Shown piece after piece: positions 9,536 to 57,265 of a DNA stretch of 64,000 bases. The DNA is from an uncultured Alphaproteobacteria bacterium (lineage in GTDB: Bacteria; Pseudomonadota; Alphaproteobacteria; Rhodospirillales; Rhodospirillaceae). Positions within the stretch are counted from its first letter, which is position 1, and each line of letters starts with the position of its first letter. Where the stretch lies: positions 20,660-84,659 of the forward strand of contig CACGTM010000003.1 in the NCBI GenBank assembly GCA_902575965.1, given 5' to 3'. Below the pieces are notes generated by a model. That model made no database searches, was not told the origin of the DNA, and was given only the letters and a program-made list of their open reading frames with translations. The translations under genes were made by a program, and so were the position numbers.

Positions 9536-9553
9536 TTAATGTTGAGAGGATAA

Positions 9554-11131: not shown

Positions 11132-11141
11132 TTTAAAATCT

Positions 11142-12392: not shown

Positions 12393-13330
12393 TCTTTAAT
12401 AACTTTTTTACTAAATAATTTTCTAATTTTATTTATTACTGAGAGTGCTAAAAGTGCTTCTTCTGCAGATGCTATTAAATTATTTTTACCTTTAATTTTT
12501 TTTATAAAATGATCAAGCTGCATTTCTAAAGCATCATTCATGGTTAATGAATAATCTTTACTCTCTGAAATATTATTTTTCGATATATGCTTATTAAATA
12601 AATCAGCATGAATATTGTAACTATCATAGTTTATTATTATTTCTCTTTTAGTTTCTTTACAATTTCTAGATACATGTAATTTTAATTCAATATTATCATT
12701 GGTTACAATTTTTATTTCAGATTCTTCTTTTATATTATTGTCCTGATTAAAATAAAAACTTTTGAAAAAGAACGGTTCTGAAATTCCTAAAAAGTTTACT
12801 AAATCAATATCATGAATCATGAGATCTAATAATACATCATCAGTATAATTAAAGTTAGTTAGAGCGTTTAGCCTGGTTAGTTTTATACTAATAGGTTTAG
12901 CGTTACCCTTTATTATCTCTTTCAATTTTAGCACACATGGATTAAATCTTTCTGAATGCCCACTAGCTAAAACTACTTTTTTATCATCAGCAATCGAAAT
13001 TAATTCTTTTGCATCATTTTCATATAATGTAATAGGTTTCTCAACTAAACAGTGTATTCCGTTAGATAATAATATTTTGGCAATTTCAGCATGTTTGTCT
13101 GTGGGGGAAGCTATTATAGCTATATCAATATTTTTAGTGAAGTCTGAAATTTCCCTTATTGTTTTAATATTATACTCTAGTCCAATTTTATTCTCTATTT
13201 TTATATTTTTGTCGTGTACTGCAATTAAACTTACATCAGAGGAGTTAAGGCATGTTTTCATATGCTTTACTCCCATTCTACCTAGGCCAATGATTCCAAC
13301 TCTAAATTTTTTTCTTGGTTTTAAAGGCAC
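12389..13330 (-). CDS. Gfo/Idh/MocA family NAD(P)-dependent oxidoreductase (PtmF-like position)
   Basis: It has an N-terminal Rossmann motif (RVGIIGLGRMG) and LVEKP. Confidence 0.8.
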   Translation of the reverse strand: MPLKPRKKFRVGIIGLGRMGVKHMKTCLNSSDVSLIAVHDKNIKIENKIGLEYNIKTIREISDFTKNIDIAIIASPTDKHAEIAKILLSNGIHCLVEKPITLYENDAKELISIADDKKVVLASGHSERFNPCVLKLKEIIKGNAKPISIKLTRLNALTNFNYTDDVLLDLMIHDIDLVNFLGISEPFFFKSFYFNQDNNIKEESEIKIVTNDNIELKLHVSRNCKETKREIIINYDSYNIHADLFNKHISKNNISESKDYSLTMNDALEMQLDHFIKKIKGKNNLIASAEEALLALSVINKIRKLFSKKVIKE

Positions 13331-13333
13331 ACC

Positions 13334-14485: not shown

Positions 14486-14600
14486 TTTTAAATTTTAGAA
14501 TATTTATCTTGAAAATAAATATGTTAAGTGTCTCAATCAATTTGAATAATTTAATTATTTATAGCATGATAATTAAGACTTTTTATTGAGGTATTCGATA

Positions 14601-16358: not shown

Positions 16359-18536
16359 TTATAGTTTTAGCTTATCTAAAATTATGGACTCAAAAACATC
16401 AGATATTTCATCTATAGATTTTTTATCATCAAATAAAATATCTGAAGACTCTAGGATTTTATTTTTTATAGTTTCCCTAAAGCTTTGATTGTTTGCTAAT
16501 TTATAAGCAATGTCAACATATTCACTTGGAGTTTTTGCAACACAATCTAAGACTCTAATTCTTTTATAAAATGCTAATGTATGTCTTCCTCTCATGAACT
16601 CACCTGGCAAATGAACTACGGGTGTTCCAACAGCTAAACTTTCAAGTGTTGTTTTTCCACCAGACCATTCTGGTATATCTAATAAAACATCTGAGCATTT
16701 CAGAAGTGAAGGAAAGTCTGAAGAATAAACTCTATTAATTAATTTTACTCTTTGAATATTTTCTCCAATCTTTTTTTCAAGTCTGTTAATAAAATGCTCA
16801 TCAGATTGTGAATATAGTGATAAAAAATAAACTAAACCATTTGGATCTTTTTTTAATAAAGCATCTACTATTGAGTCAAAATCAGGATGAATTTTGAACA
16901 AAGACTGTGCACATAAGTAAGATTTTTTTTCTGGGTCAATACCAAATATTTTAGCATCAGGGTCTTTAATCGGCAATGCTGGTTTCTTAACGCATATTGA
17001 AAGTTGCTTTAGTCTAATCAGTTTCTCGGTGTAATGAGTTTTGGATTCCGGCGTTTCCATATTATCTACTGATAAGAAAAAATCTATATTTGGTATTCCG
17101 CTTGTAACTGGATGGCCCCAACCCATAATTTGTATAGGTGCAGAACGCGAGAATGACAGAAAATAAACAAGGTCTTCCATCCCAATTTCTGGGTAGTAGA
17201 GAATATGGGTTTTTTCATTTGCAATTAATTTCCTTGATTTATTTAGGTTGCTTGGCAGGTCTATTACTTGATCGGCTAATTTTGCAATTTTGGGGGCAAA
17301 TTTGTCTTCTACTGGAATAGGCGGAGCCCTGAAAAGAATTACTTCAAATCGTTTTCTGTCAAGATTTTCAATTAGGCCACTTGTAAGATATCCCACAGTA
17401 TGATCCCTTAAAAAGCTCGATACAATACCAACTCTATATTTATTTGTTGCTTTAATTTCTTTTATGTGTGGGGATTCATTTTCTAACTCTGGGCAGCATT
17501 TAATATAAAAATCTGAAATTTTCTTTTGTATTTCATTATCATTCAGCCCCTGATATCCAAGAAGGAAGTTTGAGAAACCACCAGAAGCTAGGGGGTCTTT
17601 TATTGATGTAGGCTTTATTTTCTCAATTTGGGCTAATGCATTTCTTCTGTCTTGAAGTATTTGTTTTTTACTAACAGATATTACTGGCAAGATTAATTCA
17701 TATTTTAAATGTATCAAAGTTCTAAAATCTGGAGATATATCAAGACTTAATAGGGACTTGTAATGTTTTTTGGCATTTACAATATTACCTCTTCTTTCTT
17801 CTGTTTTTGCTAGTAAATATATTCCTTTAATATCATCTTCTGCTAAAGAAATTAGTCTCTCAAGCTCATTGAATGCTAATTCCAATTTTCTACTTTCAAA
17901 ATAAGCTTGTGCTAGTGATCTTCTTGCATCGATATTTTCTGGTGAGCTTTCGACTGCTAGCTTACCTGAGTTGATAGCAAAATAAGGTTGACCCAATGCC
18001 AAACGGGCATCTGTAAGAAGTCTTAAAGTTTCTCCGTGGTTTTGCCTTGCCTTATCCGCTTGTACTAGCCATCTTTCAGCTTGCTCTGGATGACCATACA
18101 TAAGAAGTAGCCGACCACAATTAAACGCGGCTGCAGCTTGCGACGGATCTCTTGTACATATAGTCATAAAGGTATTAATTGCTGCTTTAATATTTCCAGA
18201 TCTTCCGTAAGCCGCGCCAAGGTTATTAAGTATCTGAGTGTTATTTGGTTGAGCTTGTGATGCTCTTGATAGGAAATATATAGCCAGTTTATCTTCTTTT
18301 TGATGGTAGTGGTAAGTACCAAGTCTAAATAGAATATCAGGAGAAGATGGATCTATAATGTATGCTTGATCATATAGGTCCTTAGCATCATCAAATACCC
18401 TAGCTCTAAATAACCAGTCAGCTCTTTCTATAAAATTCTTAAATGGGTCATAGTCTTCAGGGTGATTTTTTAAGTAATTATCTAGTATTTCATCATTCAT
18501 ATTATCTAAATAGATCAGATTTTTCTTTATGTCCAC
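16359..18536 (-). CDS. TPR-repeat protein with a C-terminal GT41 (O-GlcNAc-transferase/SPINDLY-like) glycosyltransferase domain
   Basis: 725 aa. TPR-like repeats fill the N-terminal ~300 aa. The C-terminal half resembles GT41 (YRVGIVSSFLRDHTVGYL..., GWGHPVTSG, GGKTTLESLAVGTPVV). Confidence 0.7.
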   Translation of the reverse strand: MDIKKNLIYLDNMNDEILDNYLKNHPEDYDPFKNFIERADWLFRARVFDDAKDLYDQAYIIDPSSPDILFRLGTYHYHQKEDKLAIYFLSRASQAQPNNTQILNNLGAAYGRSGNIKAAINTFMTICTRDPSQAAAAFNCGRLLLMYGHPEQAERWLVQADKARQNHGETLRLLTDARLALGQPYFAINSGKLAVESSPENIDARRSLAQAYFESRKLELAFNELERLISLAEDDIKGIYLLAKTEERRGNIVNAKKHYKSLLSLDISPDFRTLIHLKYELILPVISVSKKQILQDRRNALAQIEKIKPTSIKDPLASGGFSNFLLGYQGLNDNEIQKKISDFYIKCCPELENESPHIKEIKATNKYRVGIVSSFLRDHTVGYLTSGLIENLDRKRFEVILFRAPPIPVEDKFAPKIAKLADQVIDLPSNLNKSRKLIANEKTHILYYPEIGMEDLVYFLSFSRSAPIQIMGWGHPVTSGIPNIDFFLSVDNMETPESKTHYTEKLIRLKQLSICVKKPALPIKDPDAKIFGIDPEKKSYLCAQSLFKIHPDFDSIVDALLKKDPNGLVYFLSLYSQSDEHFINRLEKKIGENIQRVKLINRVYSSDFPSLLKCSDVLLDIPEWSGGKTTLESLAVGTPVVHLPGEFMRGRHTLAFYKRIRVLDCVAKTPSEYVDIAYKLANNQSFRETIKNKILESSDILFDDKKSIDEISDVFESIILDKLKL

Positions 18537-46412: not shown

Positions 46413-46862
46413 ATGGCACGTATGTCGGTATTTTCAAGCCCCCTTTTGCTTGGTTTTGAACATATTGAGCAAATGATAGACCGGGCTAATAAGTCTTCTG
46501 CTGAGGGTTATCCGCCGTATAATATCGAGCAAATCGACCAGAATGCTCTGCAAATAACTCTCGCAGTTGCAGGTTTTTCTGAGAATGATTTAGCGGTTAC
46601 AGTTGAGGACAATCAATTATGTATTAGAGGAAAGACTCCAAGTAGTTCAGGAGAAAGAGTTTATCTACATAGAGGGATAGCTTCACGGAATTTTACTAGA
46701 AGCTTTGTTCTGGCGGAAGGTATAGAAGTAAAGAATGCAAGGCAAGAAAATGGACTTTTACATATAGAATTACAAAGAAAGATATTGGAGTCCAAGATTA
46801 AAAAGATAAAGATCAATTCGGATGAAAACCTTTCTAGTCAAAAAACAATAAATTTGGATTAA
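46413..46862 (+). CDS. Hsp20/alpha-crystallin small heat-shock protein (IbpA-like)
   Basis: It has YPPYNIE, LAVAGF, L.I.G and FTRSF.L, and ends on LLHIEL. Confidence 0.9.
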   Translation: MARMSVFSSPLLLGFEHIEQMIDRANKSSAEGYPPYNIEQIDQNALQITLAVAGFSENDLAVTVEDNQLCIRGKTPSSSGERVYLHRGIASRNFTRSFVLAEGIEVKNARQENGLLHIELQRKILESKIKKIKINSDENLSSQKTINLD

Positions 46863-46883
46863 AGTTCTAAATTAATTCTTATT

Positions 46884-46959
46884 GATCCCGTAGTTAAACT
46901 GGATATAACCAAGGATTCCTAATCCTTAATTCTGAGTTCGAGTCTCGGCGGGATCACCA
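46884..46959 (+). tRNA. tRNA-Arg (anticodon CCT), CCA encoded
   Basis: The sequence is GATCCCGTAGTTAAACTGGATATAACCAAGGATTCCTAATCCTTAATTCTGAGTTCGAGTCTCGGCGGGATCACCA. It has a 7-bp acceptor stem, an anticodon stem AAGGA/TCCTT with loop TTCCTAA, and a T arm CTGAG-TTCGAGT-CTCGG. Confidence 0.9.
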
Positions 46960-46977
46960 CTTTTTTCCAATAAAATC

Positions 46978-47014
46978 AACCACTTACACAGCATTCAGTG
47001 TAAGTGGTTTTTTC
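46978..47014 (+). terminator. Intrinsic terminator downstream of tRNA-Arg
   Basis: A perfect 11-bp stem (AACCACTTACA / TGTAAGTGGTT) with a 10-nt loop runs into a T tract (GGTTTTTTC). Confidence 0.6.
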
Positions 47015-47019
47015 TTAAA

Positions 47020-47031
47020 AAATCCGAACAC
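47020..47031 (+). repeat. AAATCCGAACAC motif, left inner end of the island
   Basis: This 12-mer also occurs twice in tandem at 56368-56391. The extended match is TTAAAAA(A)TCCGAACAC. Confidence 0.7.
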
Positions 47032-47105
47032 TTTGTGGACAGTGTGATGACACTCAGTCAGATAAATTACTTTTCTTTTAAAATACCCTCTGGCAAAATC
47101 ATTAT

Positions 47106-47498
47106 ATGAAGAAACTCATTACCACACTTACACTTCTCCTGATGTTCTCATCACCTTCCTATGCGGAATGGGAGAGAGTGACTAAAAATACAGATGGAGA
47201 CACCTTCTATGTAGATTTTGACAGAATCAGGAAAGTGGATGGTTTCGTATATTATTGGGTGTTGCACGATTACTTGAAACCAGAGTCAAATGGAAACTTT
47301 TCTGGCAAAGGATATTATCAAGCGGACTGTAAGTTGTTTGGGTTCAAGATATTGAGTTTCTCGTTTCACACTCAACCAATGGGGAACGGAAAACCTCGTG
47401 CAAGTTTACCTTATAAATCGAAAGAATCGAAAAAATGGATAAACCCTCCTCCTAACTCTGGGAGTGAAACTCTCTTAAACGCAGTCTGTAATCGGTGA
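47106..47498 (+). CDS. Small secreted protein, surface-adhesin-E-like (paralog 1)
   Basis: The signal peptide is MKKLITTLTLLLMFSSPSYA. The mature part (EW.RV....G..FYVDFDRIRKVDGFVYYW...DC......NAVC) resembles the Adhesin_E family pattern, including a Cys pair. The family call is from memory. Confidence 0.5.
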   Translation: MKKLITTLTLLLMFSSPSYAEWERVTKNTDGDTFYVDFDRIRKVDGFVYYWVLHDYLKPESNGNFSGKGYYQADCKLFGFKILSFSFHTQPMGNGKPRASLPYKSKESKKWINPPPNSGSETLLNAVCNR

Positions 47499-47506
47499 AA
47501 GAAGTT

Positions 47507-47731
47507 ATGAAGAAACTGATTACCGCACTTACACTTCTAATAATGTTCTCCACACCTTCCTATGCGGAATGGAAGAGAGTGGGTAACACTACAAATGGAG
47601 ACTCATTCTATGTTGATTTTGACAGAATCAGAAAAGTTGATGGTTTTGTGTATTGGTGGCAGGTGACTGATTTCCTGAAACCAGATTACCGTGGGGACTT
47701 TTCATATAAAGCATATAGAAAAGGAGAGTAG
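47507..47731 (+). CDS. Truncated tandem paralog of the preceding secreted protein
   Basis: The signal peptide and first ~55 mature residues are near-identical to paralog 1 (MKKLITALTLLIMFSTPSYAEWKRVGNTTNGDSFYVDFDRIRKVDGFVYWW). It stops after 74 aa and lacks the Cys-containing C-terminal half. Confidence 0.45.
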   Translation: MKKLITALTLLIMFSTPSYAEWKRVGNTTNGDSFYVDFDRIRKVDGFVYWWQVTDFLKPDYRGDFSYKAYRKGE

Positions 47732-47733
47732 TC

Positions 47734-48261
47734 ATGTCAGATGACAAGAAGATGAGTCAAGAGGAACTTGAAAAACTATTTGGCAAAGGAACAATCCTTT
47801 TTAACCAGGCGCCATCAGATAAAAACCAGACGAATGAATCCAAATTTATAGAAGATCATGAGTCTATATTTAAAAAATTATTTGTTGATGATGCTTCAGA
47901 TGATATTGATTTTTCTAATTATTATAATTTCGGTAAAATTTATGTATTAAATCCCTCAGATGCAAGAGAAGTTGAGGTATATACCTCTCAAACAGATAAT
48001 ATGACTACTACTTGGGTGTCAGAAAAACACTTTTGTGTGTGTAGAGTGCCGTTTAAAAAAAATACGTATCTTTTATTTTGTATAGACTGGGATGATAATT
48101 TTGGGTGTTGGACTAGATATTCTTGTTGTGCTGTTGAGGGAGAGAGTTCTTATGAAAGTGCTGAAAAAGAACTTTTAAATAATTATTATGAAAAAAATAT
48201 AAAAAATTCTGGAGATGGACGAAGCAAATGGAGTAGGTTTTTAAAAAGTCTTAAGAAATAA
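47734..48261 (+). CDS. Hypothetical Cys-rich protein (175 aa), no recognised family
   Basis: It starts 2 nt after the upstream stop. It has an acidic N-terminal half and a Cys cluster (HFCVCRVPF...LFCIDWDDNFGCWTRYSCCAVEG). Confidence 0.5.
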   Translation: MSDDKKMSQEELEKLFGKGTILFNQAPSDKNQTNESKFIEDHESIFKKLFVDDASDDIDFSNYYNFGKIYVLNPSDAREVEVYTSQTDNMTTTWVSEKHFCVCRVPFKKNTYLLFCIDWDDNFGCWTRYSCCAVEGESSYESAEKELLNNYYEKNIKNSGDGRSKWSRFLKSLKK

Positions 48262-48320
48262 CCGAAAAAAATTGAACGGGTTTAAATTAAAAAAAATATA
48301 CTTTTTAGGATACTGCATTA

Positions 48321-49892
48321 ATGAAAAATAAAACAAAAAATAATGAAGATATGATTGGTGCTCTATGGAAATCAGCGAATAAACTTCGCGATCAAATGGA
48401 TGCTGCAGAATATAAGCATATAGTACTAGGTTTGATTTTTCTAAAATATATTTCGGACTCTTTTTTAGAACAAAAGGAAAAGATTAAAAAAATAGTTACC
48501 AACCCAGAATCAGATTATTTTATAAGTGAGAATATAACTGATATTAATGAAAAAGATTTAGAGGATCGAGACTATTATACTAAAGATAATATCTTTTGGG
48601 TTCCTGAATCCGCAAGATGGGAAACTATAAGAAATCAAGCAAAACAATCTGATATAGGTTCAATTATTGATCGTGCCTTGGGTGAATTAGAAGGTAAAAA
48701 CAGGTCTCTAAAAGGTAAGTTAGATAAACGTTTTGGTAGAACACAACTTCAGGAAGGAAGGTTGGGTGAACTTATTGATGTTATTTCAACTATTGGTTTT
48801 TCTGATAAGCAAAAGGCAGGTGATATATTAGGTGAAGTCTATGAATACTTCCTTGGTCAATTTGCAACTCAAGAAGGTAAGAAAGGAGGTCAGTTTTATA
48901 CACCTAGGCATATAGTTAAAATTCTTGTTGAGGTTATATCTCCTCTTAAAGGGAGAGTTTATGACCCTTGTTGCGGTTCGGGCGGAATGTTTGTGCAAAG
49001 TGAGTCGTTTGTTAACGCGCACGGTGGTCGAAGGGATGATATTTCCATCTATGGGCAGGAGAGCAATCCAACTACTTGGCGATTAGTTGCAATGAACTTG
49101 GCAATTAGAGGTATCGCTGCTGACTTGGGTAAAGAACCCGCAGACACCTTTGCCCGTGACCAGTTTCCGGATGTGAAGTTCGACTACATCATGGCAAATC
49201 CACCCTTCAACATCTCTGACTGGGGTGGCGAGAAATACGAGAGTGACCCCCGTTGGCAGTTCGGTAGACCCCCAGTAGGCAATGCGAACTACGCATGGTT
49301 GCAACACATGTTGTGGAAATTGCGCCCGGGCGGTCAGGCAGGGGTTGTTCTTGCAAACGGTTCGATGAGTTCCAATACCGGTGGTGAAGGACAGATACGT
49401 GAAGCAATGGTGCGAGGTGACGTGGTTGAGGTCATGGTCGCATTGCCCGGTCAGTTGTTCCTGAATACGCAGATTCCTGTGTGTCTCTGGTTCCTCACCA
49501 ACGACAAGACAATGAACGGACGAGACCGCAGAGGTGAAACTCTGTTCATTGATGCACGGCAGTTGGGAACCATGGATACCCGTGTTCTTAAGGTCTTCAC
49601 CGATGAGGACATCGCAAAGATTCAAGAGATTGTTCAGTCTTGGAAGACGGGTGAAGATTACGAGGACATTGCGGGGTTCTGTAAGTCAGCGTCTTTGGAA
49701 GAGATTGAGAAGAATGGGTTCATATTAACGCCCGGAAGATACTGCGGTTCTGCAGAATCGTCAGTGAACGAAGAGGAGTTCCTCTCCGTCTTTGAGGCAC
49801 TGACATCTCAACTTAAAAATCAAAGAGAAATCTCATCACAACTGGATAGTGAAATTGAACGCAACCTAAGCGCACTGAGAGGTTCATCGTGA
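48321..49892 (+). CDS. hsdM: Type I restriction-modification system, N6-adenine DNA methyltransferase subunit
   Basis: It has an HsdM N-terminal domain (LWKSANKLRD...YKHIVLGLIFLKYISD), motif I (VYDPCCGSGGMF) and motif IV (NPPFN). Confidence 0.95.
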   Translation: MKNKTKNNEDMIGALWKSANKLRDQMDAAEYKHIVLGLIFLKYISDSFLEQKEKIKKIVTNPESDYFISENITDINEKDLEDRDYYTKDNIFWVPESARWETIRNQAKQSDIGSIIDRALGELEGKNRSLKGKLDKRFGRTQLQEGRLGELIDVISTIGFSDKQKAGDILGEVYEYFLGQFATQEGKKGGQFYTPRHIVKILVEVISPLKGRVYDPCCGSGGMFVQSESFVNAHGGRRDDISIYGQESNPTTWRLVAMNLAIRGIAADLGKEPADTFARDQFPDVKFDYIMANPPFNISDWGGEKYESDPRWQFGRPPVGNANYAWLQHMLWKLRPGGQAGVVLANGSMSSNTGGEGQIREAMVRGDVVEVMVALPGQLFLNTQIPVCLWFLTNDKTMNGRDRRGETLFIDARQLGTMDTRVLKVFTDEDIAKIQEIVQSWKTGEDYEDIAGFCKSASLEEIEKNGFILTPGRYCGSAESSVNEEEFLSVFEALTSQLKNQREISSQLDSEIERNLSALRGSS

Positions 49893-49893
49893 A

Positions 49894-51174
49894 ATGACGC
49901 TGCAGTCGCTCAACGAACTAATAGAAAAAGTTATAGACAATCGTGGGAAAACTCCGCCCCTTTCAGAGGTGCCTACGGAATATCCGTTAATCGAGGTAAA
50001 TGCGGTTCGAGGATCATCGCCGATTCCAAACAGATCGGTGTTTTCTAAGTGGGTCAGCAAAGATACTTATGGCAGTTGGTTCCGGAGCGGTCACCCCCAA
50101 CCCGGAGATGTATTAACTAGCACTGTGGGTTCTATAGGTGAATTTGCACTGCATGATGGCGAAGGAGCAATAGCGCAAAACATAGTCGGTCTGCGCTTTG
50201 ATCCTGCGAAATGCCACCCCAAATATGCTTATTACCTCTTCACAAATCCCACTAATAGAGAGCGAGTCAAAAACTTAGACATCAGTTCTGTTCAACCCAG
50301 CGTCAAAGTACCTCATCTCTTGTCGCTAGAGTTTGATTTGCCGCTTATCTCCGACCAAAAAGCAATTGCTCACATCCTTGGCACCCTTGACGATAAGATC
50401 GAACTAAACAAAAAAATAAACCAAACCCTTGAAGACATCGCCAAGGCAATCTTCAAGTCATGGTTTGTGGACTTTGATCCCGTGCGAGCAAAGGCAGAGG
50501 GTCGCCCCACAGTTCTTCCCCCTGAAATCAGTGACCTGTTTCCTGAGGAGTTGGTGGATTCGGAGATTGGGGAGATTCCGAAGGGATGGAACGTTGGGGC
50601 ACTATCAGATGTCGCTGACATTACTATGGGACAGTCACCGCCCGGAGATACCTACAACGATAATGGCGTTGGACTACCCTTTTACCAAGGCAGCACTGAT
50701 TTTGGATTTAGATTTCCGTCACTGAGAAAATACTGCTCAGAACCCAAACGACTCGCAGATGCAGATGATGTGTTAATTAGTGTCAGGGCACCTGTAGGTG
50801 ATCTGAATCGTGCAAAAGACGATTGTTGTATCGGACGAGGGTTAGCGTCATTGCGAGCGAAAAATTCGCTGCAAACTTGGGTTTTTTACAGATGCAAATT
50901 TCTGTCTCAGCAATTGGAAACATTCAACTCTGAGGGCACAGTATTCGGTTCGATTAACGGAAAGGACTTGAAGGGTCTTCCAACTATTCTTCCGCCTGAG
51001 GTCTTGTGCAAGGCGTTCGATGAAATTGGTAAACCGATGGATGACGCTGTGAGAAACAGAACTTTGGAAATCGAAGTTTTAACTGAACTCAGAGACACAC
51101 TCCTGCCCAAACTCATCTCCGGTGAACTCCGCATCCCTGACGCAGAGAAGTTCCTTGAAGAGGCGGGTATCTGA
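49894..51174 (+). CDS. hsdS: Type I R-M specificity subunit, copy 1
   Basis: 426 aa with two target-recognition domains. These are separated by the conserved helical spacer (ILGTLDDKIELNKKINQTLEDIAKAIFKSWFVDFDPVR) and followed by the C-terminal conserved helix (LTELRDTLLPKLISGELRI). It starts 1 nt after the hsdM stop. Confidence 0.9.
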   Translation: MTLQSLNELIEKVIDNRGKTPPLSEVPTEYPLIEVNAVRGSSPIPNRSVFSKWVSKDTYGSWFRSGHPQPGDVLTSTVGSIGEFALHDGEGAIAQNIVGLRFDPAKCHPKYAYYLFTNPTNRERVKNLDISSVQPSVKVPHLLSLEFDLPLISDQKAIAHILGTLDDKIELNKKINQTLEDIAKAIFKSWFVDFDPVRAKAEGRPTVLPPEISDLFPEELVDSEIGEIPKGWNVGALSDVADITMGQSPPGDTYNDNGVGLPFYQGSTDFGFRFPSLRKYCSEPKRLADADDVLISVRAPVGDLNRAKDDCCIGRGLASLRAKNSLQTWVFYRCKFLSQQLETFNSEGTVFGSINGKDLKGLPTILPPEVLCKAFDEIGKPMDDAVRNRTLEIEVLTELRDTLLPKLISGELRIPDAEKFLEEAGI

Positions 51175-51182
51175 TGGCGTTG
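50536..51182 (+). repeat. 647-bp perfect direct repeat, copy 1 (TRD2 plus the hsdS 3' end plus 8 nt past the stop)
   Basis: My base-by-base visual comparison with 51822-52468 (offset 1286) found no mismatch. Confidence 0.85.
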
Positions 51183-52460
51183 GTAACCGAAGATAAATAC
51201 GTTCACAGTCTATCTGACGTAATTAACTTAATTGGAGGCGGCACTCCCAAACGTTCAATCAGTGAATATTGGAATGGCGATATACCATGGTTATCTGTTA
51301 AAGATTTTAACCATGGCGGCAGGTATGTTGAAGAATCTGATGAAACCATTACCCAACTGGGACTGAAGAAGAGTAGCACTAAATTATTAAAACCTGGAAT
51401 GCTAATAATTTCAGCGAGAGGCACAGTTGGTGAACTCGCACAACTTAAGACTGAAATGGCATTTAACCAATCCTGTTACGGCATAGATGCAAAGACGCAA
51501 TACCTTGATAATAACTATCTATATTATCTGCTCAAATTAAAGATAAGAGAATTAAAGTCGATCGCTCACGGGTCTGTTTTTGACACAATAACAAGAGACA
51601 CTTTTGAAAATATTGAAGTCGAGATTCCCAGCAAATATGACCAAGAAGCAATCGTCCACATCCTTGGCAGTCTAGACGATAAGATCGAACTCAACCAAAA
51701 GATGACCCAAACGCTTGAGGAGATCGCCAAGGCAATCTTTAAGTCATGGTTTGTGGATTTTGATCCCGTGCGTGCAAAGGCAGAGGGTCTTCCCACACGT
51801 CTTCCCCCTGAAATCAGTGATCTGTTTCCTGAGGAGTTGGTGGATTCGGAGATTGGGGAGATTCCGAAGGGATGGAACGTTGGGGCACTATCAGATGTCG
51901 CTGACATTACTATGGGACAGTCACCGCCCGGAGATACCTACAACGATAATGGCGTTGGACTACCCTTTTACCAAGGCAGCACTGATTTTGGATTTAGATT
52001 TCCGTCACTGAGAAAATACTGCTCAGAACCCAAACGACTCGCAGATGCAGATGATGTGTTAATTAGTGTCAGGGCACCTGTAGGTGATCTGAATCGTGCA
52101 AAAGACGATTGTTGTATCGGACGAGGGTTAGCGTCATTGCGAGCGAAAAATTCGCTGCAAACTTGGGTTTTTTACAGATGCAAATTTCTGTCTCAGCAAT
52201 TGGAAACATTCAACTCTGAGGGCACAGTATTCGGTTCGATTAACGGAAAGGACTTGAAGGGTCTTCCAACTATTCTTCCGCCTGAGGTCTTGTGCAAGGC
52301 GTTCGATGAAATTGGTAAACCGATGGATGACGCTGTGAGAAACAGAACTTTGGAAATCGAAGTTTTAACTGAACTCAGAGACACACTCCTGCCCAAACTC
52401 ATCTCCGGTGAACTCCGCATCCCTGACGCAGAGAAGTTCCTTGAAGAGGCGGGTATCTGA
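51174..52460 (+). CDS. hsdS: Type I R-M specificity subunit, copy 2 (different TRD1, identical TRD2)
   Basis: 428 aa. The N-terminal TRD is unrelated to copy 1. From LFPEELVDSEIGE to the C-terminus it is 100% identical to copy 1. It has TGATG start/stop overlaps on both sides. Confidence 0.9.
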   Translation: MALVTEDKYVHSLSDVINLIGGGTPKRSISEYWNGDIPWLSVKDFNHGGRYVEESDETITQLGLKKSSTKLLKPGMLIISARGTVGELAQLKTEMAFNQSCYGIDAKTQYLDNNYLYYLLKLKIRELKSIAHGSVFDTITRDTFENIEVEIPSKYDQEAIVHILGSLDDKIELNQKMTQTLEEIAKAIFKSWFVDFDPVRAKAEGLPTRLPPEISDLFPEELVDSEIGEIPKGWNVGALSDVADITMGQSPPGDTYNDNGVGLPFYQGSTDFGFRFPSLRKYCSEPKRLADADDVLISVRAPVGDLNRAKDDCCIGRGLASLRAKNSLQTWVFYRCKFLSQQLETFNSEGTVFGSINGKDLKGLPTILPPEVLCKAFDEIGKPMDDAVRNRTLEIEVLTELRDTLLPKLISGELRIPDAEKFLEEAGI

Positions 52461-52468
52461 TGGCGTTG
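51822..52468 (+). repeat. 647-bp perfect direct repeat, copy 2
   Basis: It is identical to 50536-51182. Near-identity continues for 12 more nt into hsdR with one mismatch. Confidence 0.85.
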
Positions 52469-55400
52469 ATAACCGAAGATCAAGTTGAACTGCAGAGTAT
52501 CGAATGGTTCAAAGACCTTGGTTACCAGTACGTTTGTGGGTATGACATTGCGGTTGATGGAGAGACACCAGAACGCACCGACTACCGCTCAGTAGTCCTT
52601 AAAGATCGACTGCTCTCTGCACTGACCCGGATCAATCCAGATATTCCTAAGTCAGCGATAGACACTGCTCTGTCTCAACTGATGAACCCCAACATCCCTG
52701 CCCTCATGTCGTGCAATCGACAGGTGCATTCGTGGTTAACCAAAGGAGTGAAGGTCACCTATCAGGAAGGTAACGAGACCGTTGGTAAGCAACTCAAGGT
52801 CATCGACTTCGATAATCCTGAGAACAACGACTGGTTGGTAGTGAATCAATTCACCATTCACGGTCAGAAACCCAGAAGACCAGACATTATAGTTTTTATA
52901 AATGGACTGCCTCTTGGAGTTATAGAACTTAAAAATCCTGCTGATGTAAATGCAGATATTTGGTCTGCTTTTAATCAACTTGAAACTTATAAAGAAGATA
53001 TTCCTGATTTGTTTAATTCAAATGGAGTCTTAGTAATATCTGATGGTGTACAGGCACGTATGGGTTCCATTACAGCATCACAAGAAAGGTTTATGAGGTG
53101 GAGAACGATCGATGGCGAAACTGTGGATCCTTTGGGTTCCTATCAAGATCTAGAAACTTTAATTAGAGGACTATTTAGTAAAGAAACATTTCTAAACTTT
53201 ATTAGATATTTTTGTATCTTTGAAAGTAAAGAAAACATCATTAAGAAGATTGCTGGGTATCATCAGTTTTACGCTGTTCAAAAAGCACATGAGAAAATAG
53301 TTGATGCATCAAAAATAGACGGAAGCAAAAAAGGTGGTGTGGTGTGGCACACCCAAGGTGCGGGAAAAAGTTTAGAAATGACCTGTCTTGCAGGTAGGAT
53401 AATCTCTGATCCCCGATTAAAAAACCCAACCATAGTTATGATAACGGACCGACAAGATTTAGATGGACAATTATTTGGGGTCTTTAATGATGCTGGTAAT
53501 TTATTGGGGGAAGAACCTAAACAAGCAGACACTATTAAAGACCTAAAAGACCTTCTTTTGAATAGACCTTCTGGTGGAATTATCTTTACTACCATTCAAA
53601 AATTTAAACCTGATAAAACTGAAGAAAAATTTCCCGTATTAACTGACCGTCATAACGTTATAGTAATGTGTGATGAGGCACACAGAACTCAATACGGATT
53701 CAAAGGTGTTATTGACCAAAAGACAGGTCAAATTAGGTATGGTTTGGCGCGTGCATTAAGAGATGGTCTTCCCAATGCAACCTTTATTGCTTTTACAGGG
53801 ACGCCAATTTCTCAGGATGACAGAGATACGCAAGCAGTCTTTGGTGAGTATGTCGATGTCTATGACATTCAACAAGCAGTTGAAGATGGCGCGACGGTTC
53901 CTATCTATTATGAGTCGCGACTTGCTAAGATAAAAATAGATGAATCCAAATTACCCGAGATTGACGAAGAAGTAGAAGAAATATTCGAAGATGGAATTGA
54001 AGATTATGAACAGCAAGAAAAAGCAAAAATTAAATGGTCACAAATTGAAGCATTGGTAGGGGCACAACCAAGATTAAAAGAAGTTGCAGAGGATATTATT
54101 GAACATTTTCACATACGGCAAAAGACACAACCAGGAAAGGCACTGATTGTTGGAATGAGTCGTGATATTTGTGCTCGTCTTTATGATGAATTGATCAAGA
54201 TAAAACCTCAATGGGGAAATGATGATCATAATTCAGGTGTAATTAAAGTAGTGATGACGGCATCTGCAAGTGACGAAAAATATTTACAGAAGCATAATAC
54301 GTCTAAACAGCAGAAAAAAGATTTAGAAAAAAGATTTAAAGATCCTTCTGATGAATTACAAATAGTAATCGTTCGAGATATGTGGTTAACAGGTTTTGAT
54401 GCGCCATGTTTATCGACAATGTATGTTGATAAACCAATGAAGGGAGCAAACCTGGCACAAGCAATTGCTAGGGTAAACAGGGTTTTCGCTGATAAACCTG
54501 GTGGTTTAATAGTCGATTACATCGGCATTGCACCCCAACTTAAAGATGCACTGGCAACGTATAGTGCAAGCAAAGGCAGAGGAAAACCAACTATTGATGC
54601 AGACGAGGCACTTAATTTGCTCAAAGAGAAATTAGATGTTGCAAGAGATTTGCTTTATCCTGTTAACTGGTCAGAATATCAAACAAAAGCACTTCAACTT
54701 TTGCCTGAGTGTATCGAACATATCTTAGAATTAGAAGATGGAAGAAAAAGATACTGTGATGTAGTTTTACAAATGACTAAAGCATTTGCTTTATGCGGCG
54801 CTATGGATGATGCTTTAGTTTTTGCAGAAGAAGTTGCATTTCATCAAGCGATTAGAGCGCCACTCATCAAGACAGCGAGAAAAGGTGGAAGAGGTCAGTT
54901 CAAAGACACCGATTTTGAACTTAAACAATTAGTTTCTGAGTCACTTGTGTCAAGTGGGGTCACAGACTTGTTTGAGGTTGCAGGAATAAAAACCCCGGAT
55001 ATTTCAATTCTTTCTGACGAATTTTTAGCAGAAGTACAAAAAATAAAATATAAAAATGTTGCGGTAGAGTTATTAAATAAATTGCTTAATGATGAAGTGA
55101 AGTCAAAGTTTCGAACAAATATGGTCAAGCAAAAAAAATTCAGTGATCGACTTAAGGTTTCTCTTTCTAAATATCAAAATAGATCTATTGAAGCAGCGCA
55201 GGTTATTGCCGAACTGATTGAAATGGCAAAAGACTTTAAGAATGATTTAGAAAAGTCAAAAGAACTCAATTTAAGTCCGGACGAAAATGCTTTTTATGAT
55301 GCACTTTGTAATAATAAGTCTGCGGAAGAACTTATGGGTGAGGATGTTCTTATACAAATTGCTAGAGAGATTTCTGAGAAATTAAGACAAAATGTGACTG

Positions 55401-55561
55401 TTGATTGGTCTCAAAGAGAGTCTGTCCGTGCAAGACTGAGGTTATTGGTGAAAAATCTCCTTAGAAGATATAAATACCCACCCGATGACCAAGATGAGGC
55501 AACTAAGTTAATTTTATCTCAGGCAGAAGTAATTTCAGAAAACATGCTGTCCAATAATTAA
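52460..55561 (+). CDS. hsdR: Type I restriction enzyme, endonuclease/translocase subunit
   Basis: 1033 aa. It has an N-terminal PD-(D/E)xK-like region (RPDIIVFINGLPLGVIELK), helicase motif I (HTQGAGKS), a DEAH box (MCDEAHRTQ), FTGTP and a later QAIARVNR. Confidence 0.95.
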   Translation: MALITEDQVELQSIEWFKDLGYQYVCGYDIAVDGETPERTDYRSVVLKDRLLSALTRINPDIPKSAIDTALSQLMNPNIPALMSCNRQVHSWLTKGVKVTYQEGNETVGKQLKVIDFDNPENNDWLVVNQFTIHGQKPRRPDIIVFINGLPLGVIELKNPADVNADIWSAFNQLETYKEDIPDLFNSNGVLVISDGVQARMGSITASQERFMRWRTIDGETVDPLGSYQDLETLIRGLFSKETFLNFIRYFCIFESKENIIKKIAGYHQFYAVQKAHEKIVDASKIDGSKKGGVVWHTQGAGKSLEMTCLAGRIISDPRLKNPTIVMITDRQDLDGQLFGVFNDAGNLLGEEPKQADTIKDLKDLLLNRPSGGIIFTTIQKFKPDKTEEKFPVLTDRHNVIVMCDEAHRTQYGFKGVIDQKTGQIRYGLARALRDGLPNATFIAFTGTPISQDDRDTQAVFGEYVDVYDIQQAVEDGATVPIYYESRLAKIKIDESKLPEIDEEVEEIFEDGIEDYEQQEKAKIKWSQIEALVGAQPRLKEVAEDIIEHFHIRQKTQPGKALIVGMSRDICARLYDELIKIKPQWGNDDHNSGVIKVVMTASASDEKYLQKHNTSKQQKKDLEKRFKDPSDELQIVIVRDMWLTGFDAPCLSTMYVDKPMKGANLAQAIARVNRVFADKPGGLIVDYIGIAPQLKDALATYSASKGRGKPTIDADEALNLLKEKLDVARDLLYPVNWSEYQTKALQLLPECIEHILELEDGRKRYCDVVLQMTKAFALCGAMDDALVFAEEVAFHQAIRAPLIKTARKGGRGQFKDTDFELKQLVSESLVSSGVTDLFEVAGIKTPDISILSDEFLAEVQKIKYKNVAVELLNKLLNDEVKSKFRTNMVKQKKFSDRLKVSLSKYQNRSIEAAQVIAELIEMAKDFKNDLEKSKELNLSPDENAFYDALCNNKSAEELMGEDVLIQIAREISEKLRQNVTVDWSQRESVRARLRLLVKNLLRRYKYPPDDQDEATKLILSQAEVISENMLSNN

Positions 55562-55653
55562 AAAGTTTTTAGAATATTGAAAAAGGACAGACAAATATGA
55601 TTAAGTAATAACTTGAATGTGTTTAAATAAAAAATTTCTACAAGGTTAGTAAC

Positions 55654-56328
55654 TTGATAATTTATCTTATTTTATTATTTATTTATTTTTCTCCAATAAT
55701 TTGGTTTAATTTCATCTTCAACAAGTATGATAAAATCCTAGAAAATATGCCCTTCAATGGGTTGGAGTTTGGAGAGCAAATTCTAAAAGAAAATAATCTA
55801 AATGATGTTGCTATAGAAGTAACGGACAAAGGGGACCACTATGACCCAAATGAGAAAAAAGTTAAAGTTAAGCAAGAGAGATTAGACAATAAAAGTATTA
55901 CTGCTATTTCCGTAGTTTGTCACGAAATTGGACATGCTATCCAAGATAATGAAAATTACAAACCTCTTGAGAGAAGACAAAAATTACTCAAGAGAACAGC
56001 ATGGGTTTCTTGGTTGGGGAGAGGAATTATTTTCATAGGACTGCCAGCAATTTTTGCCACTGGTTTATTTCCTCTTATTAGAGTTTGTATAATTCTAGTT
56101 ATATTGAGTATTGTAATAGATGTATTAATACATTTAGTTACATTACATGTAGAAATCGATGCAAGTTTTAATAGAGCATTGCCAATTCTAAAACAAAAAA
56201 TTCCCCCCGAATATCACAAGGAATGTAGATCTGTTTTAAGAGCAGCAGCATATACTTATGTAATTTCTGCACTGAGTAAGGTTATAAATTTGAGGAATAT
56301 ATGGTTATTAATTGCGCGATTAAGATAA
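55654..56328 (+). CDS. Membrane zinc metallopeptidase, YugP-like (Zn_peptidase_2 family)
   Basis: It has an N-terminal TM helix, GDHYDP...V.V...L...SITAISVVCHEIGHAIQ (HExxH) and two C-terminal TM helices. It uses a TTG start. Confidence 0.7.
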   Translation: MIIYLILLFIYFSPIIWFNFIFNKYDKILENMPFNGLEFGEQILKENNLNDVAIEVTDKGDHYDPNEKKVKVKQERLDNKSITAISVVCHEIGHAIQDNENYKPLERRQKLLKRTAWVSWLGRGIIFIGLPAIFATGLFPLIRVCIILVILSIVIDVLIHLVTLHVEIDASFNRALPILKQKIPPEYHKECRSVLRAAAYTYVISALSKVINLRNIWLLIARLR

Positions 56329-56367
56329 GAGGGATGGATTGTTGATTATGGACATAAAATTGATTAA

Positions 56368-56391
56368 AAATCCGAACACAAATCCGAACAC
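56368..56391 (+). repeat. Two abutting AAATCCGAACAC motifs, right inner end of the island
   Basis: The sequence AAATCCGAACACAAATCCGAACAC carries the same 12-mer found at 47020-47031. Confidence 0.7.
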
Positions 56392-56472
56392 TCGTTTTTA
56401 AGGAATTTTAAAAAGTTAGATAAAGTATTGATCTTATTGCATGAAATAGGAATATACATTGAAGTCATTTTT

Positions 56473-56528
56473 TATAACAAAGGATTCCTAATCCTTAATT
56501 CTGGGTTCGAGTCCCGGCGGGATCACCA
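56473..56528 (+). repeat. Displaced 3' fragment of tRNA-Arg(CCT) (attR-like direct repeat)
   Basis: The sequence is TATAACAAAGGATTCCTAATCCTTAATTCTGGGTTCGAGTCCCGGCGGGATCACCA. It matches 46904-46959 at 53/56 positions. It has no 5' half, so it is not a functional tRNA. Confidence 0.8.
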
Positions 56529-56686
56529 TTTTTCTGCTTTTTAATACTTTAATTTAATAATTGTAAATTAATTATCAAAAATTTAATAATTATACTATTC
56601 AATATCAGATTATTTTTGGGTAAAGATTGACAGATTTAGATATTTATTTTCAGGATATATTTAGAATACTCACTAGAGGTAATATT

Positions 56687-57265
56687 ATGAGACATTTTGT
56701 TTTTTTAATTATTTTTTTCTTTGTCTCTTTTGACTCATTATCAAAGGAGCTTACAAAGCCCGTTATTAACCTTGATGACGCTATCATGAAGCTAGAGTCA
56801 GGAAATGATCTTGAGGCTCTCCTAGATTTCCAGATTTTAGCTACAGAGGGAAATATAGTAGCTCAGACTTATTTGGGGCAAATGTACAGGACTGGTAGGG
56901 GATTAAGTCAAAATTTCACCAAAGCTGCAATGTGGTTAGGCAAAGCTGCCAAGGCAGGTAATGCTTCTGCAAACCATAGGCTTGGTTGGATGTATTCACG
57001 AGGCCAGATAGACGGTAAAAGAGATGATAAAATGGCAGTTAAGTACTGGAAAAAGGCTGCTGAATTGGGTGATCCTTATGCACAGTCTGACCTTGGAGTA
57101 ATGTATTCGAGGGGAGATGTTGTTGATAAGGATATGGTTCTTGCTTATTATTGGCTTGTAAAATCTTCTAATCAAACAGGCCAGAAAAGTATGAATCTCT
57201 CAAAAGTTCAGAATGAAATGACTCCTGATGAATTTGATAAGGCCCTAAGGTTACTAGAGAAATAA
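56687..57265 (+). CDS. Secreted Sel1-repeat (TPR-like) protein
   Basis: It has a signal peptide (MRHFVFLIIFFFVSFDSLS) and three or four Sel1 repeats (AQTYLGQMYRTGRGLSQNFTKAAMWLGKAA; HRLGWMYSRG; QSDLGVMYSRGD). I prefer the ATG at 56687 to the track's TTG at 56627. Confidence 0.8.
   Translation: MRHFVFLIIFFFVSFDSLSKELTKPVINLDDAIMKLESGNDLEALLDFQILATEGNIVAQTYLGQMYRTGRGLSQNFTKAAMWLGKAAKAGNASANHRLGWMYSRGQIDGKRDDKMAVKYWKKAAELGDPYAQSDLGVMYSRGDVVDKDMVLAYYWLVKSSNQTGQKSMNLSKVQNEMTPDEFDKALRLLEK

Follow-up and report, generated by a model that had tools for sequence, protein, structure and literature searches.

The 64,000-nucleotide stretch of DNA analysed here (hereafter the window), from an uncultured low-GC marine alphaproteobacterium, contains a genomic island that very probably entered the tRNA-Arg(CCT) gene through a tyrosine-integrase-type insertion. 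The island carries a type I restriction-modification (R-M) system as its payload and, in its present integrase-less form, resembles a cis-mobilizable element (CIME). The features on which this reading is based are collected in Table 1.

Table 1. Features of the island and its junctions, with positions in the window
Feature	Position	Strand	Evidence or remarks
Intact hybrid tRNA-Arg(CCT), attL	46884..46959	+	ARAGORN; Rfam 58.7 bits; alignment with empty sites
Strand-exchange interval	46911..46934	+	attL: C 46910 chromosomal, A 46935 island
Island left arm	46960..47031	+	missing in all empty sites; present in related island junction L004
22-mer CAATAAAATCAACCACTTACAC in left arm	46968-46989	+	
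Terminator hairpin in left arm	46978-47009 + T tail	+	12 bp; folding energy z = -5.9
12-mer AAATCCGAACAC, single copy in left arm	47020-47031	+	
Adhesin_E-like secreted protein, 130 aa	47106..47498	+	Pfam PF16747, E=1e-21
Adhesin_E-like second copy, truncated, 78 aa	47495..47731	+	PF16747, E=1.5e-6, profile positions 1-50 of 109
ORF175, 175-aa protein of unknown function	47734..48261	+	small family found beside defence genes
hsdM, type I methyltransferase	48321..49892	+	Pfam N6_Mtase 1.6e-105, HsdM_N; PADLOC MTase_I 4.9e-178
hsdS1, type I specificity subunit	49894..51174	+	Pfam Methylase_S; PADLOC Specificity_I 4.5e-92
hsdS2, second specificity subunit	51174..52460	+	Pfam Methylase_S; PADLOC Specificity_I 6.3e-95
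hsdR, type I endonuclease/helicase	52460..55561	+	Pfam HSDR_N, SWI2_SNF2, T1R_D3-like, T1RH-like_C; PADLOC REase_I
Putative membrane zinc metallopeptidase	55654..56328	+	Pfam Zn_peptidase_2, 1.1e-51
12-mer AAATCCGAACAC, two tandem copies in right arm	56368..56391	+	
attR, displaced tRNA 3' fragment: D-stem 3' strand to CCA, plus 5 nt	56473..56533	+	tRNA part 56473-56528
Strand-exchange interval, attR equivalent	56480-56503		attR: A 56479 island, G 56504 chromosomal

The target tRNA gene and its displaced 3' repeat

A repeat search identified a 61-nt direct repeat (46904-46964 and 56473-56533; 93% identity; spacing 9569 nt) made up of the last 56 nt of tRNA-Arg(CCT) and 5 nt of flanking sequence. 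It is the sole repeat pair of such length in the 16 kb examined and, judged by that length, cannot be a chance match; nor is it dispersed, as a repeat unrelated to integration might be. The initial annotation, made from the sequence and its open reading frames, had recorded three differences within the tRNA part, and the same three can be read off directly: 46910 C/A, 46935 A/G and 46945 T/C, which are tRNA positions 26, 52 and 62, respectively. A fourth difference between attL and attR lies directly 3' of the CCA (46960 C versus T). In the cloverleaf, CTGAG (46932-46936) pairs with CTCGG (46944-46948) to form the T stem, in agreement with the earlier observation that 46935 and 46945 face each other, as an A-U pair in the intact gene and as G-C in the fragment. 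ARAGORN additionally called a "tRNA-Met(cat)" at 56430-56528; we regard this as a false call built on the tRNA fragment, because Rfam sees no tRNA there (E≤0.1).

Empty sites and the mosaic junctions

Nine of ten contigs with an identical Hsp20 have an empty site: in these marine-metagenome contigs (L001-L003 and L005-L010) the order hsp20-tRNA-Sel1 is uninterrupted. Samples with the empty site include ERZ23498644 and the Tara samples from which L002 and L006 come. The same three genes are adjacent in L012, a metagenome-assembled genome (MAG) of a sister species (MED667), in which the tRNA is identical and has G52-C62. The unoccupied arrangement that the initial annotation had suggested looking for thus exists in nine contigs and L012. 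The in-silico excision product, 1,284 nt obtained by joining the flanks of the island in the window, aligns without gaps to eight of the empty-site contigs at 99.1-99.4% identity, and the flank ACCATTTTTCTGC, located 3' of attR in the window, is also present in the empty sites.

Comparison of the junctions with the empty site (attB) reveals a mosaic: attB has C26 with G52-C62, attL has C26 with A52-U62, and attR has A26 with G52-C62. This is the pattern predicted by reciprocal recombination, and the attL/attR differences are fully accounted for by polymorphism between attP and attB, with both repeats intact. Since the empty sites have G52-C62 followed by the ACCATTTTTCTGC flank and are without the hairpin, the A52-U62 T stem and the hairpin are island-derived, as first proposed for the working tRNA 3' half and terminator, whereas the 3' part of attR is ancestral. 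The parallel proposal that the whole displaced fragment is ancestral survives for the part 3' of the crossover (G52-C62) and has to be given up for its 5' end: all the empty sites have C at tRNA position 26, so that A 56479 must have come from the island. With A26 in attR coming from the island and G52-C62 from the chromosome, the crossover lies between positions 26 and 52. The resulting interval covers the anticodon stem-loop and the variable loop and takes in 3 nt at the start of the T stem, with the T loop outside it; the anticodon loop is the class A sublocation, seen in 2083 of 3919 Islander islands (PMC4383910).

The island arms look like parts of one attP. Its tRNA half reads CTGAGTTCGAGTCTCGGCGGGATCACCAC and is followed by the hairpin, and the attP junction sequence could be reconstructed as the consecutive blocks GAAGTCATTTTT, TATAACAAAGGATTCCTAATCCTTAATTCTGAGTTCGAGTCTCGGCGGGATCACCAC and TTTTTTCCAATAAAATC, with further arm sequence on either side. 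The 12-mer AAATCCGAACAC has three exact copies in the window, where 0 would be expected, in identical orientation throughout: once 61 nt past attL and twice 82-105 nt before attR. It is missing from all 28 other loci compared, and its copies are candidate arm-type recombinase-binding sites.

A complete type I R-M system and its companion genes

Eight ORFs, all intact, lie between the repeats, one fewer than the nine counted initially. The hsdM, hsdS and hsdR genes are adjacent and full length, with complete Pfam domain sets, as expected of a type I R-M system; the PADLOC REase_I profile covers HsdR over its full length (residues 3-1028, E=0). The identity profile shows that the last ~640 nt of hsdS2 are identical to hsdS1. 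When the cassette was compared with plasmids, identity reached at most 65-68%, to assorted type I systems.

The two Adhesin_E-like copies share 80% identity over 211 nt. We considered this gene as an island core gene; however, its closest relatives (L042) lie in unremarkable chromosomal surroundings where no integrase gene is called, and it is therefore not one. ORF175 has no match in Pfam or PADLOC. Its relatives number 38 among 1.8 billion representative proteins, and a relative adjoins another type I R-M system (L039-L041). The AlphaFold2 model of ORF175 is confident (pLDDT 90.6), and the matches that Foldseek found for it in the PDB and BFVD were no better than E=0.007, with TM<0.4.

The third-position GC content (GC3) of hsdM and hsdS is 0.39-0.45, versus 0.27-0.33 in the flanking genes. 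An empty-site variant and a compositional contrast, whose joint absence had been named in the initial annotation as grounds against an island, are thus both present. All island proteins form singleton clusters at 90% identity among 15 billion proteins; the flanking proteins, by contrast, are found on 10-20 or more contigs. By these measures the island appears as foreign and rare in the population. Exact-protein look-ups of ORF175, HsdR and Sel1 returned no record. P0005, the nominal representative of the HsdM cluster, is an unrelated 38-aa peptide and a clustering artefact, and the contigs attached to it are irrelevant.

Absence of recombinase genes

A six-frame Pfam scan of 46960-56472 recovered no integrase, excisionase, transposase or relaxase at E≤1, its only domains being Adhesin_E, HsdM, HsdS, HsdR and Zn_peptidase_2; this bears out the initial description of the island as integrase-less. 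The tycheposon recombinase, primase and helicase-replication domains are likewise absent from the island in Pfam searches, a phmmer search with a P4-like integrase as query found no match, and the intergenic gaps in the island are ≤146 bp. No trans-acting integrase was detected elsewhere in the 64-kb window among 30 ORFs (622-37006, Pfam), a scan that left out four large ORFs (7613-9535, 9554-11131, 14586-16346 and 16359-18536), or in the syntenic part of L001 corresponding to ~36.4-64 kb (precomputed Pfam); both sets consist of housekeeping genes only.

Relatives of the island

The one contig with an identical Hsp20 that is not empty, L004 (GCA_036337565.1, a separate assembly), shares the island-type tRNA 3' half and the hairpin with the window; beyond them its sequence is different, and the contig stops 167 nt into the island. 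As a second independent junction, it indicates that a family of elements uses this attP. A second contig of the same MAG (L036) begins 116 nt upstream of Sel1, and the L004 island therefore falls between two assembly breaks, those of JAYZEA010000007.1 and JAYZEA010000026.1. The source of the window is itself probably a metagenome-assembled contig, and its long-range contiguity rests on assembly.

Searches of viral, metagenome and phage collections yielded no integrase-bearing relative with the same att site and arms. In viral contigs there were 0 matches to the left-arm 21-mer and 0 to the attP-type T-arm 28-mer and the doubled 12-mer; among GenBank phages the similarity to the reconstructed attP was limited to 43 nt within the tRNA-Arg genes of Enterococcus phages. 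The left-arm 21-mer had one match in metagenome contigs, L011, where a 22-nt identity lies in the sequence after a tRNA-Phe and adjoins a P4-like integrase. Because similarity to the island is weak beyond about 35 nt, we treat L011 only as a lead, and the identity may be due to chance. Two viral contigs that encode relatives of the L011 integrase, L034 and L035, were rejected as integrase-bearing relatives of the island, as they have no tRNA and no common arm sequence.

A second integrase-less islet was found in the orthologous tRNA-Arg(CCT) of L013, a different, high-GC Rhodospirillaceae genome. It spans 3.1 kb and contains two ORFs; the repeat on either side of it is 50 nt long, perfect, and begins within the anticodon loop. 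It has no arm motifs in common with the window island.

Proposed origin and present mobility

We propose that the 9,569-bp island arrived through site-specific recombination of the tyrosine-integrase type, with the chromosomal tRNA-Arg(CCT) serving as attB and the attP borne by the element. This attP would have carried a close copy of the tRNA, beginning at the 3' strand of the D stem and ending at the CCA, with A26 and A52-U62, and would also have brought its own rho-independent terminator. Strand exchange in the anticodon-arm region (46911-46934) left a hybrid working tRNA at attL, its 5' part chromosomal and its T arm, acceptor 3' strand and terminator island-derived, while displacing the native 3' part 9.6 kb downstream to attR. 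The payload is the complete type I R-M system (hsdM, two hsdS, hsdR) with four accessory genes, and phage defence is its likely benefit to the host.

Genes for an integrase, an excisionase, a transposase or transfer are all missing from the island, which is therefore incapable of moving unaided; to be excised or transferred again it would depend on a cognate integrase from elsewhere. The "immobilised" and "mobilised in trans" states put forward by the initial annotation are a reasonable pair of alternatives. As to how the integrase may have gone missing, we lean towards loss of the integrase module, either by clean deletion or replacement inside the element, or by excision of an integrase-bearing partner that left the remainder behind.

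Alternative origins

One alternative is that the island never had an integrase and was from the outset a non-autonomous, att-bounded cargo cassette with arm-type repeats, the integrase acting in trans, or that it was dropped by a partner element; such a cassette would be the site-specific-recombination counterpart of a MITE. We consider this unlikely, although it draws support from the want of gradual-decay scars: the eight ORFs and both att sites are intact, the gaps are short (≤146 bp) and the three 12-mers identical. The L013 islet at the orthologous tRNA-Arg(CCT) points the same way, as does a tycheposon study proposing that cargo is left in tRNA-linked islands after the mobile part excises (bioRxiv 10.1101/2020.12.28.424599). 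However, two cases do not make a class, the L013 islet and the window island are without common arm motifs, and no trans-acting integrase occurs among the scanned ORFs of the 64-kb window. Moreover, the GC content is mosaic and a truncated Adhesin_E copy lies directly against ORF175, which shows that the island was rearranged internally; a clean deletion of the integrase gene is therefore equally plausible. The wider form of this idea, namely a whole class of integrase-free cassettes, with a tRNA-Arg att core and conserved arm repeats, at a tRNA-Arg(CCT) hotspot of marine Rhodospirillaceae and served by an integrase located elsewhere or in a transient partner, seems to us quite doubtful. If true, streamlined planktonic bacteria would routinely gain defence genes without keeping mobility machinery, and the L013 islet would be another instance.

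It is most improbable that the island is an assembly artefact, in which a foreign fragment was joined at the shared tRNA sequence during metagenome assembly. The source contig does appear MAG-derived and several metagenome contigs break exactly here, but an artefact would need two chimeric joins, both in register. Furthermore, attR is a partial tRNA following island-specific sequence, with an A26 found in no chromosomal copy; the reciprocal attL/attR mosaic is the product of recombination and not of a mis-join; and the independent assembly L004 has the same attL-type junction. That the repeat came from duplication of part of the tRNA gene, or from homologous recombination in which no integrase took part, with the genes between the copies gathered later, would fit the lack of an integrase in the island, but is equally far-fetched in view of an insertion exact to the nucleotide against the empty sites, a repeat that is the typical attP-attB identity block (direct orientation, anticodon-arm region to just past the CCA), and a compensatory 52-62 change with a new terminator, which show that the tRNA 3' half brought in was functional and foreign and not copied locally.

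Significance

Under the favoured reading, insertion by a tyrosine-integrase-type enzyme followed by loss of the integrase, the window island is a clean but ordinary example of a decayed or passenger genomic island, a kind already known. It overturns nothing: integrase-less att-flanked islands (CIMEs and degenerate islands) and post-integration hybrid tRNAs are already established. Its value is that of a clear example: the empty site, taken with the hybrid junctions on the two sides and the compensatory pair in the T stem, shows the foreign tRNA half and the place of strand exchange directly. It also documents a population-rare defence island (a type I R-M system with two specificity subunits) at a tRNA hotspot of an uncultured low-GC marine alphaproteobacterium. 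The occurrence of integrase-less att-bounded inserts at the same tRNA in two lineages bears on how the flexible islands of streamlined marine genomes are filled.

Comparison with known systems

Integrase-less staphylococcal SCC-like elements (psi-SCC, ACME) are moved by ccr recombinases from another element. Like the window island, they are cargo cassettes that occupy a fixed place in the chromosome between target repeats of a recombinase encoded elsewhere; they differ in using serine recombinases and the orfX site rather than a tRNA and tyrosine-integrase-type att sites.

The tycheposon-associated islands of Prochlorococcus (bioRxiv 10.1101/2020.12.28.424599) share with the window island a marine planktonic host, a hotspot that is hypervariable, linked to a tRNA and marked by partial tRNA repeats, defence or adaptive cargo, and a rare element with an empty site in most cells; there too, "island genes" are proposed to stay after the mobile part leaves. 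In contrast, the window island is without the hallmark genes (tyrosine recombinase, primase/helicase module), belongs to another host phylum, and forms one clean unit between its att sites where those islands are long composites.

The Islander islands (PMC4383910; classes of Williams 2002, cited therein) likewise split a tRNA gene that is regenerated by island sequence, have a displaced 3' fragment at the far end and an anticodon-loop crossover interval, and are distinct in composition. Among the Islander criteria, the window island shows an intact tRNA and a same-orientation displaced fragment at its bounds, an uninterrupted target in close relatives (nine contigs and L012), and a canonical crossover sublocation (confined to 46911-46934). 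A tyrosine integrase gene inside the island is obligatory there, whereas the window island has none.

CIMEs are defined by att sites that are kept and mobility genes that are absent (PMC5704250), and the window island, with attL and attR kept and no integration or transfer genes, falls within this definition. The known examples, such as CIME19258 and CIME302 of Streptococcus thermophilus (PMC5704250), are demonstrably related to specific Firmicutes ICEs/IMEs and shown to be mobilised by accretion, whereas for the window island, which resides in a low-GC marine alphaproteobacterium, the viral, metagenome and phage collections yielded no parent element. In both, attL and attR stem from integration into the 3' end of a gene, integration and transfer genes are lacking, the cargo is adaptive, and movement is in principle possible only with an integrase-bearing helper.

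The integrase-less island at tRNA-Arg(CCT) and its att sites

The island is an exact insertion with reciprocal mosaic att sites, it gives the tRNA-Arg(CCT) gene a foreign 3′ half and terminator, and it carries a complete R-M cargo and no recombinase gene, all of which are established directly. A repeat search of 44-60 kb reported one long direct repeat only, in which 46904-46964 recurs at 56473-56533 (61 nt, 93% identical, 9,569 nt apart). By direct reading, the tRNA part of the attL and attR copies differs at three positions (46910 C/A, 46935 A/G and 46945 T/C), with a fourth difference just 3′ of the CCA (46960 C vs T). The T stem of the cloverleaf is CTGAG (46932-46936) paired with CTCGG (46944-46948); hence, 46935 and 46945 are the mutually paired positions 52 and 62, which form A-U in the intact gene and G-C in the fragment. 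The repeat, its three differences and the compensatory pair described in the initial annotation were thus borne out in all details. Rfam gave no tRNA match at the fragment (E<=0.1), indicating that it is not a gene. The 99-nt "tRNA-Met(cat)" called by ARAGORN at 56430-56528 is a false prediction built on this displaced 3′ fragment, with no Rfam tRNA there.

When the upstream Hsp20 (46413-46862) was looked up by exact sequence, it was located in 10 places in marine metagenomes and MAGs. A Sel1-repeat gene directly follows the tRNA in nine of these ten contigs (L001-L003, L005-L010), and in the window it comes after the displaced fragment. When aligned, all nine empty-site contigs show C at position 26, the G52-C62 pair and the 3′ flank ACCATTTTTCTGCTTTTTAATAC..., which is the sequence following attR in the window. 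The sister species Rhodospirillaceae MAG MED667 (L012; Hsp20 87% identical) has the empty arrangement too, with an identical G52-C62 tRNA, so that the uninterrupted hsp20-tRNA-Sel1 order, which the initial annotation had proposed as the empty site in relatives, is found in both the nine contigs and the sister species. Joining 46413-46934 to 56504-57265 in silico yields a 1,284-nt product that aligns ungapped and end to end to eight empty-site contigs (99.1-99.4%); therefore, the island is an exact 9,569-bp insertion. Three empty-site contigs (L001, L003 and L010) differ at tRNA position 6 (GATCCTG vs GATCCCG), with an acceptor-stem G-U replacing G-C, and these variants are a natural polymorphism of tRNA-Arg(CCT) within the population.

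The empty site (attB) combines C26 with G52-C62, attL combines C26 with A52-U62, and attR combines A26 with G52-C62. This is the reciprocal mosaic expected of recombination between attB and an element-borne attP that would have had A26 and A52-U62. The exchange point is bounded by positions 26 and 52 (46911-46934), an interval that includes the anticodon stem-loop. Among the standard crossover sublocations of islands that integrate into tRNA genes is the anticodon loop (Islander class A, PMC4383910). The terminator hairpin is missing from all empty sites, which also have G52-C62, which bears out the proposal that the T arm and the hairpin are island-derived. The companion proposal that the displaced fragment is ancestral stands for the part with G52-C62 but not for the first nucleotides including A26, which came from the island.

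The remaining Hsp20 contig, L004 (GCA_036337565.1), has an island-type junction: A52-U62, "ACCAC" and a hairpin closely resembling that of the window. It then departs from the window sequence and stops 167 nt beyond the tRNA. Within the same MAG, the contig that matches on the downstream side (L036) starts 116 nt before Sel1, and thus a different island lies between these two assembly breaks; several further contigs break just upstream of Sel1. This attP is used by a family of elements, and tRNA-Arg(CCT) is a hotspot at the level of the population. In L013, from a Rhodospirillaceae genome of high GC content with conserved synteny (Hsp20 72% identical), a 3.1-kb insert (L013 10906-14103) follows the orthologous tRNA-Arg(CCT) and is flanked by a perfect 50-nt direct repeat running from the anticodon loop to 10 nt past the CCA. 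One of its two ORFs codes for a P-loop/TPR protein of 817 aa and the other for a product of 133 aa, and the insert likewise has no integrase-sized ORF. Thus, integrase-less, att-bounded inserts occur at tRNA-Arg(CCT) in two lineages.

Gene content and the search for a recombinase

All six frames of 46960-56472 were searched against Pfam with stop codons masked as X (E<=1). The three plus-strand frames returned the domains of the annotated genes only and the three minus-strand frames returned no match; Phage_integrase, resolvase, transposase, relaxase and excisionase/AlpA domains were found in none of the six, as the initial annotation had judged for the ORFs between the repeats. With a P4-like integrase as the query, phmmer gave no match among all stop-to-stop ORFs of the window that are >=40 aa long. 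Only housekeeping genes were recovered outside the island, both among 30 ORFs within 622-37006 (Pfam; four large ORFs left out) and in the precomputed Pfam annotation of the syntenic L001 (equivalent to ~36.4-64 kb). Thus, "integrase-less" holds for the island, and there is no integrase among the window ORFs scanned.

Features of the island, its att sites and a further locus in the window
Feature	Coordinates	Strand	Evidence or remark
tRNA-Arg(CCT), intact hybrid (attL)	46884-46959	+	ARAGORN; Rfam RF00005, 58.7 bits
Terminator hairpin	46978-47009		12 bp + T tail; z = -5.9
AAATCCGAACAC, copy 1	47020-47031		61 nt after tRNA end
Adhesin_E-like protein	47106-47498	+	Pfam
Adhesin_E-like protein, truncated second copy	47495-47731	+	Pfam
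ORF175	47734-48261	+	no Pfam or PADLOC match
hsdM	48321-49892	+	PADLOC MTase_I, 4.9e-178
hsdS1	49894-51174	+	PADLOC Specificity_I, 4.5e-92
hsdS2	51174-52460	+	PADLOC Specificity_I, 6.3e-95
hsdR	52460-55561	+	PADLOC REase_I, E=0, full length
Zn_peptidase_2 protein	55654-56328	+	Pfam, 1.1e-51
AAATCCGAACAC, copies 2 and 3	56368-56379, 56380-56391		82-105 nt before attR
Displaced tRNA fragment (attR)	56473-56533
Sugar and nonulosonic-acid biosynthesis cluster	1637-14485		probable surface-glycan locus

Eight ORFs, all on the plus strand and separated by gaps of <=146 bp, fill the island, and the type I R-M system among them is complete. The composition is mosaic: GC3 is 0.39-0.45 in hsdM, hsdS1 and hsdS2, 0.29 in hsdR and 0.22-0.23 in ORF175 and the peptidase gene, against 0.27-0.33 in flanking chromosomal genes. 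At 90% identity each island protein forms a singleton cluster (among ~15 billion proteins) and occurs on one 86,060-nt NCBI contig only, whereas exact copies of the flanking proteins are present on 10-20 or more contigs. On these grounds the island is both foreign and rare.

The second Adhesin_E-like gene (78 vs 130 aa) matches the Pfam profile over its first half only and abuts ORF175, a boundary that looks like an internal rearrangement junction. Elsewhere such genes form tandem intact pairs in an ordinary chromosomal context (L042). The tandem hsdS1 and hsdS2 (49894-52460) have a 100% identical 3′ stretch of ~640 nt (~800 nt at >=84%) and unrelated 5′ halves (20-40% identity), and accordingly constitute one R-M system with two specificity subunits sharing the second target-recognition domain. 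Homologous recombination across this long direct repeat could delete or swap one copy.

An exhaustive phmmer search of 1.8 billion representative proteins recovered 38 relatives of ORF175, mostly on short contigs. One of these, P0031 (36% identical; L039 3923-4396), is the neighbour of a type I R-M system other than that of the island (HsdR 31% identical). Both are inside a satellite-like element next to a tRNA-Ser(GGA); AlpA, AAA_25 and small-terminase genes are also part of it. This element (L039 1-12633; also L040 and L041) adjoins the tRNA-Ser(GGA), an SRP RNA gene and dnaX, and also codes for a MORN-repeat protein; no integrase was seen between tRNA and AlpA, and the element runs past the contig start. 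Another relative (L038 2292-2735), from a Porticoccaceae MAG, is beside helicase and nuclease genes. The ORF175 family appears to be linked to defence genes, and these neighbours suggest a defence-associated accessory protein. AlphaFold2 gave a confident model of ORF175 (pLDDT 90.6), which has no meaningful structural match in PDB or BFVD.

Elsewhere in the window, the cluster at 1637-14485 codes for a class III aminotransferase, UDP-GlcNAc 2-epimerase, cytidylyltransferase, NeuB, hexapeptide acetyltransferase, short-chain dehydrogenase, GFO/IDH/MocA oxidoreductase and DegT aminotransferase. Surface-glycan loci are typically variable in marine bacteria.

Candidate arm-type sites

The 12-mer AAATCCGAACAC has three exact copies in the 64-kb window, in one orientation, against 0 expected, and was not found in 28 other loci compared; at the equivalent place in L004 there is a related motif, also doubled, GTTGAACAC TGTTGAACA. 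The layout is the one that arm-type integrase-binding sites on both arms of one attP would have, making these candidate sites as judged from their placement. This arrangement argues for a single-element origin of both island ends rather than a captured donor chromosome at the left.

The left-arm 21-mer AATAAAATCAACCACTTACAC was absent from viral contigs and matched once among metagenome contigs, in L011, directly after a tRNA-Phe(GAA) and before a 375-aa P4-like tyrosine integrase. The location is striking, though the alignment to the island is weak beyond ~35 nt, and relatives of this integrase have nothing further in common with the island. The 22-mer CAATAAAATCAACCACTTACAC (window 46968-46989) is likewise present in L011 (1304-2589) after the tRNA-Phe(GAA), with the integrase 85 nt on, and is either an arm motif shared by the two or coincidental. 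Further searches for a parent element, by pattern and by BLAST, were negative.

Origin of the integrase-less state

We propose that a tyrosine integrase would have recombined attP with attB within the anticodon arm and that the island would now be non-autonomous. The integrase could have been lost when its gene was cleanly deleted or replaced inside the island; that internal rearrangement did happen is evident from the mosaic GC content and from the truncated Adhesin_E copy directly next to ORF175. The island may equally have come as a passenger or have been dropped off by an integrase-bearing partner, consistent with its intact arms, the lack of decay scars and the repetition of the pattern in L013. 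The latter route would parallel CIME-ICE accretion and the tycheposon "left behind" model put forward for tycheposon-associated islands (bioRxiv 10.1101/2020.12.28.424599). That the island at no time had an integrase of its own is a stronger claim, and seems unlikely to us. An assembly chimera is very unlikely: it needs two in-register joins and would produce neither A26 nor a reciprocal mosaic, and an independent assembly has the same attL type. Duplication without an integrase is equally improbable, as it does not account for a tRNA half that is foreign and compensated and has a terminator of its own.

Relationship to known systems

Islands that have att flanks but no integrase are already established, as are hybrid tRNAs left by integration. 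This island is of value because it is very clean and fully polarised, and because it points to a hotspot of defence genes in a marine lineage that is uncultured. It works like an Islander-type tRNA-integrated genomic island but lacks the internal integrase required by Islander, and it has both structural hallmarks of a CIME. Without the hallmark genes it is not a tycheposon; rather, it resembles the non-mobile "island genes" of tycheposon-associated islands, which are thought to have been deposited by tycheposons.
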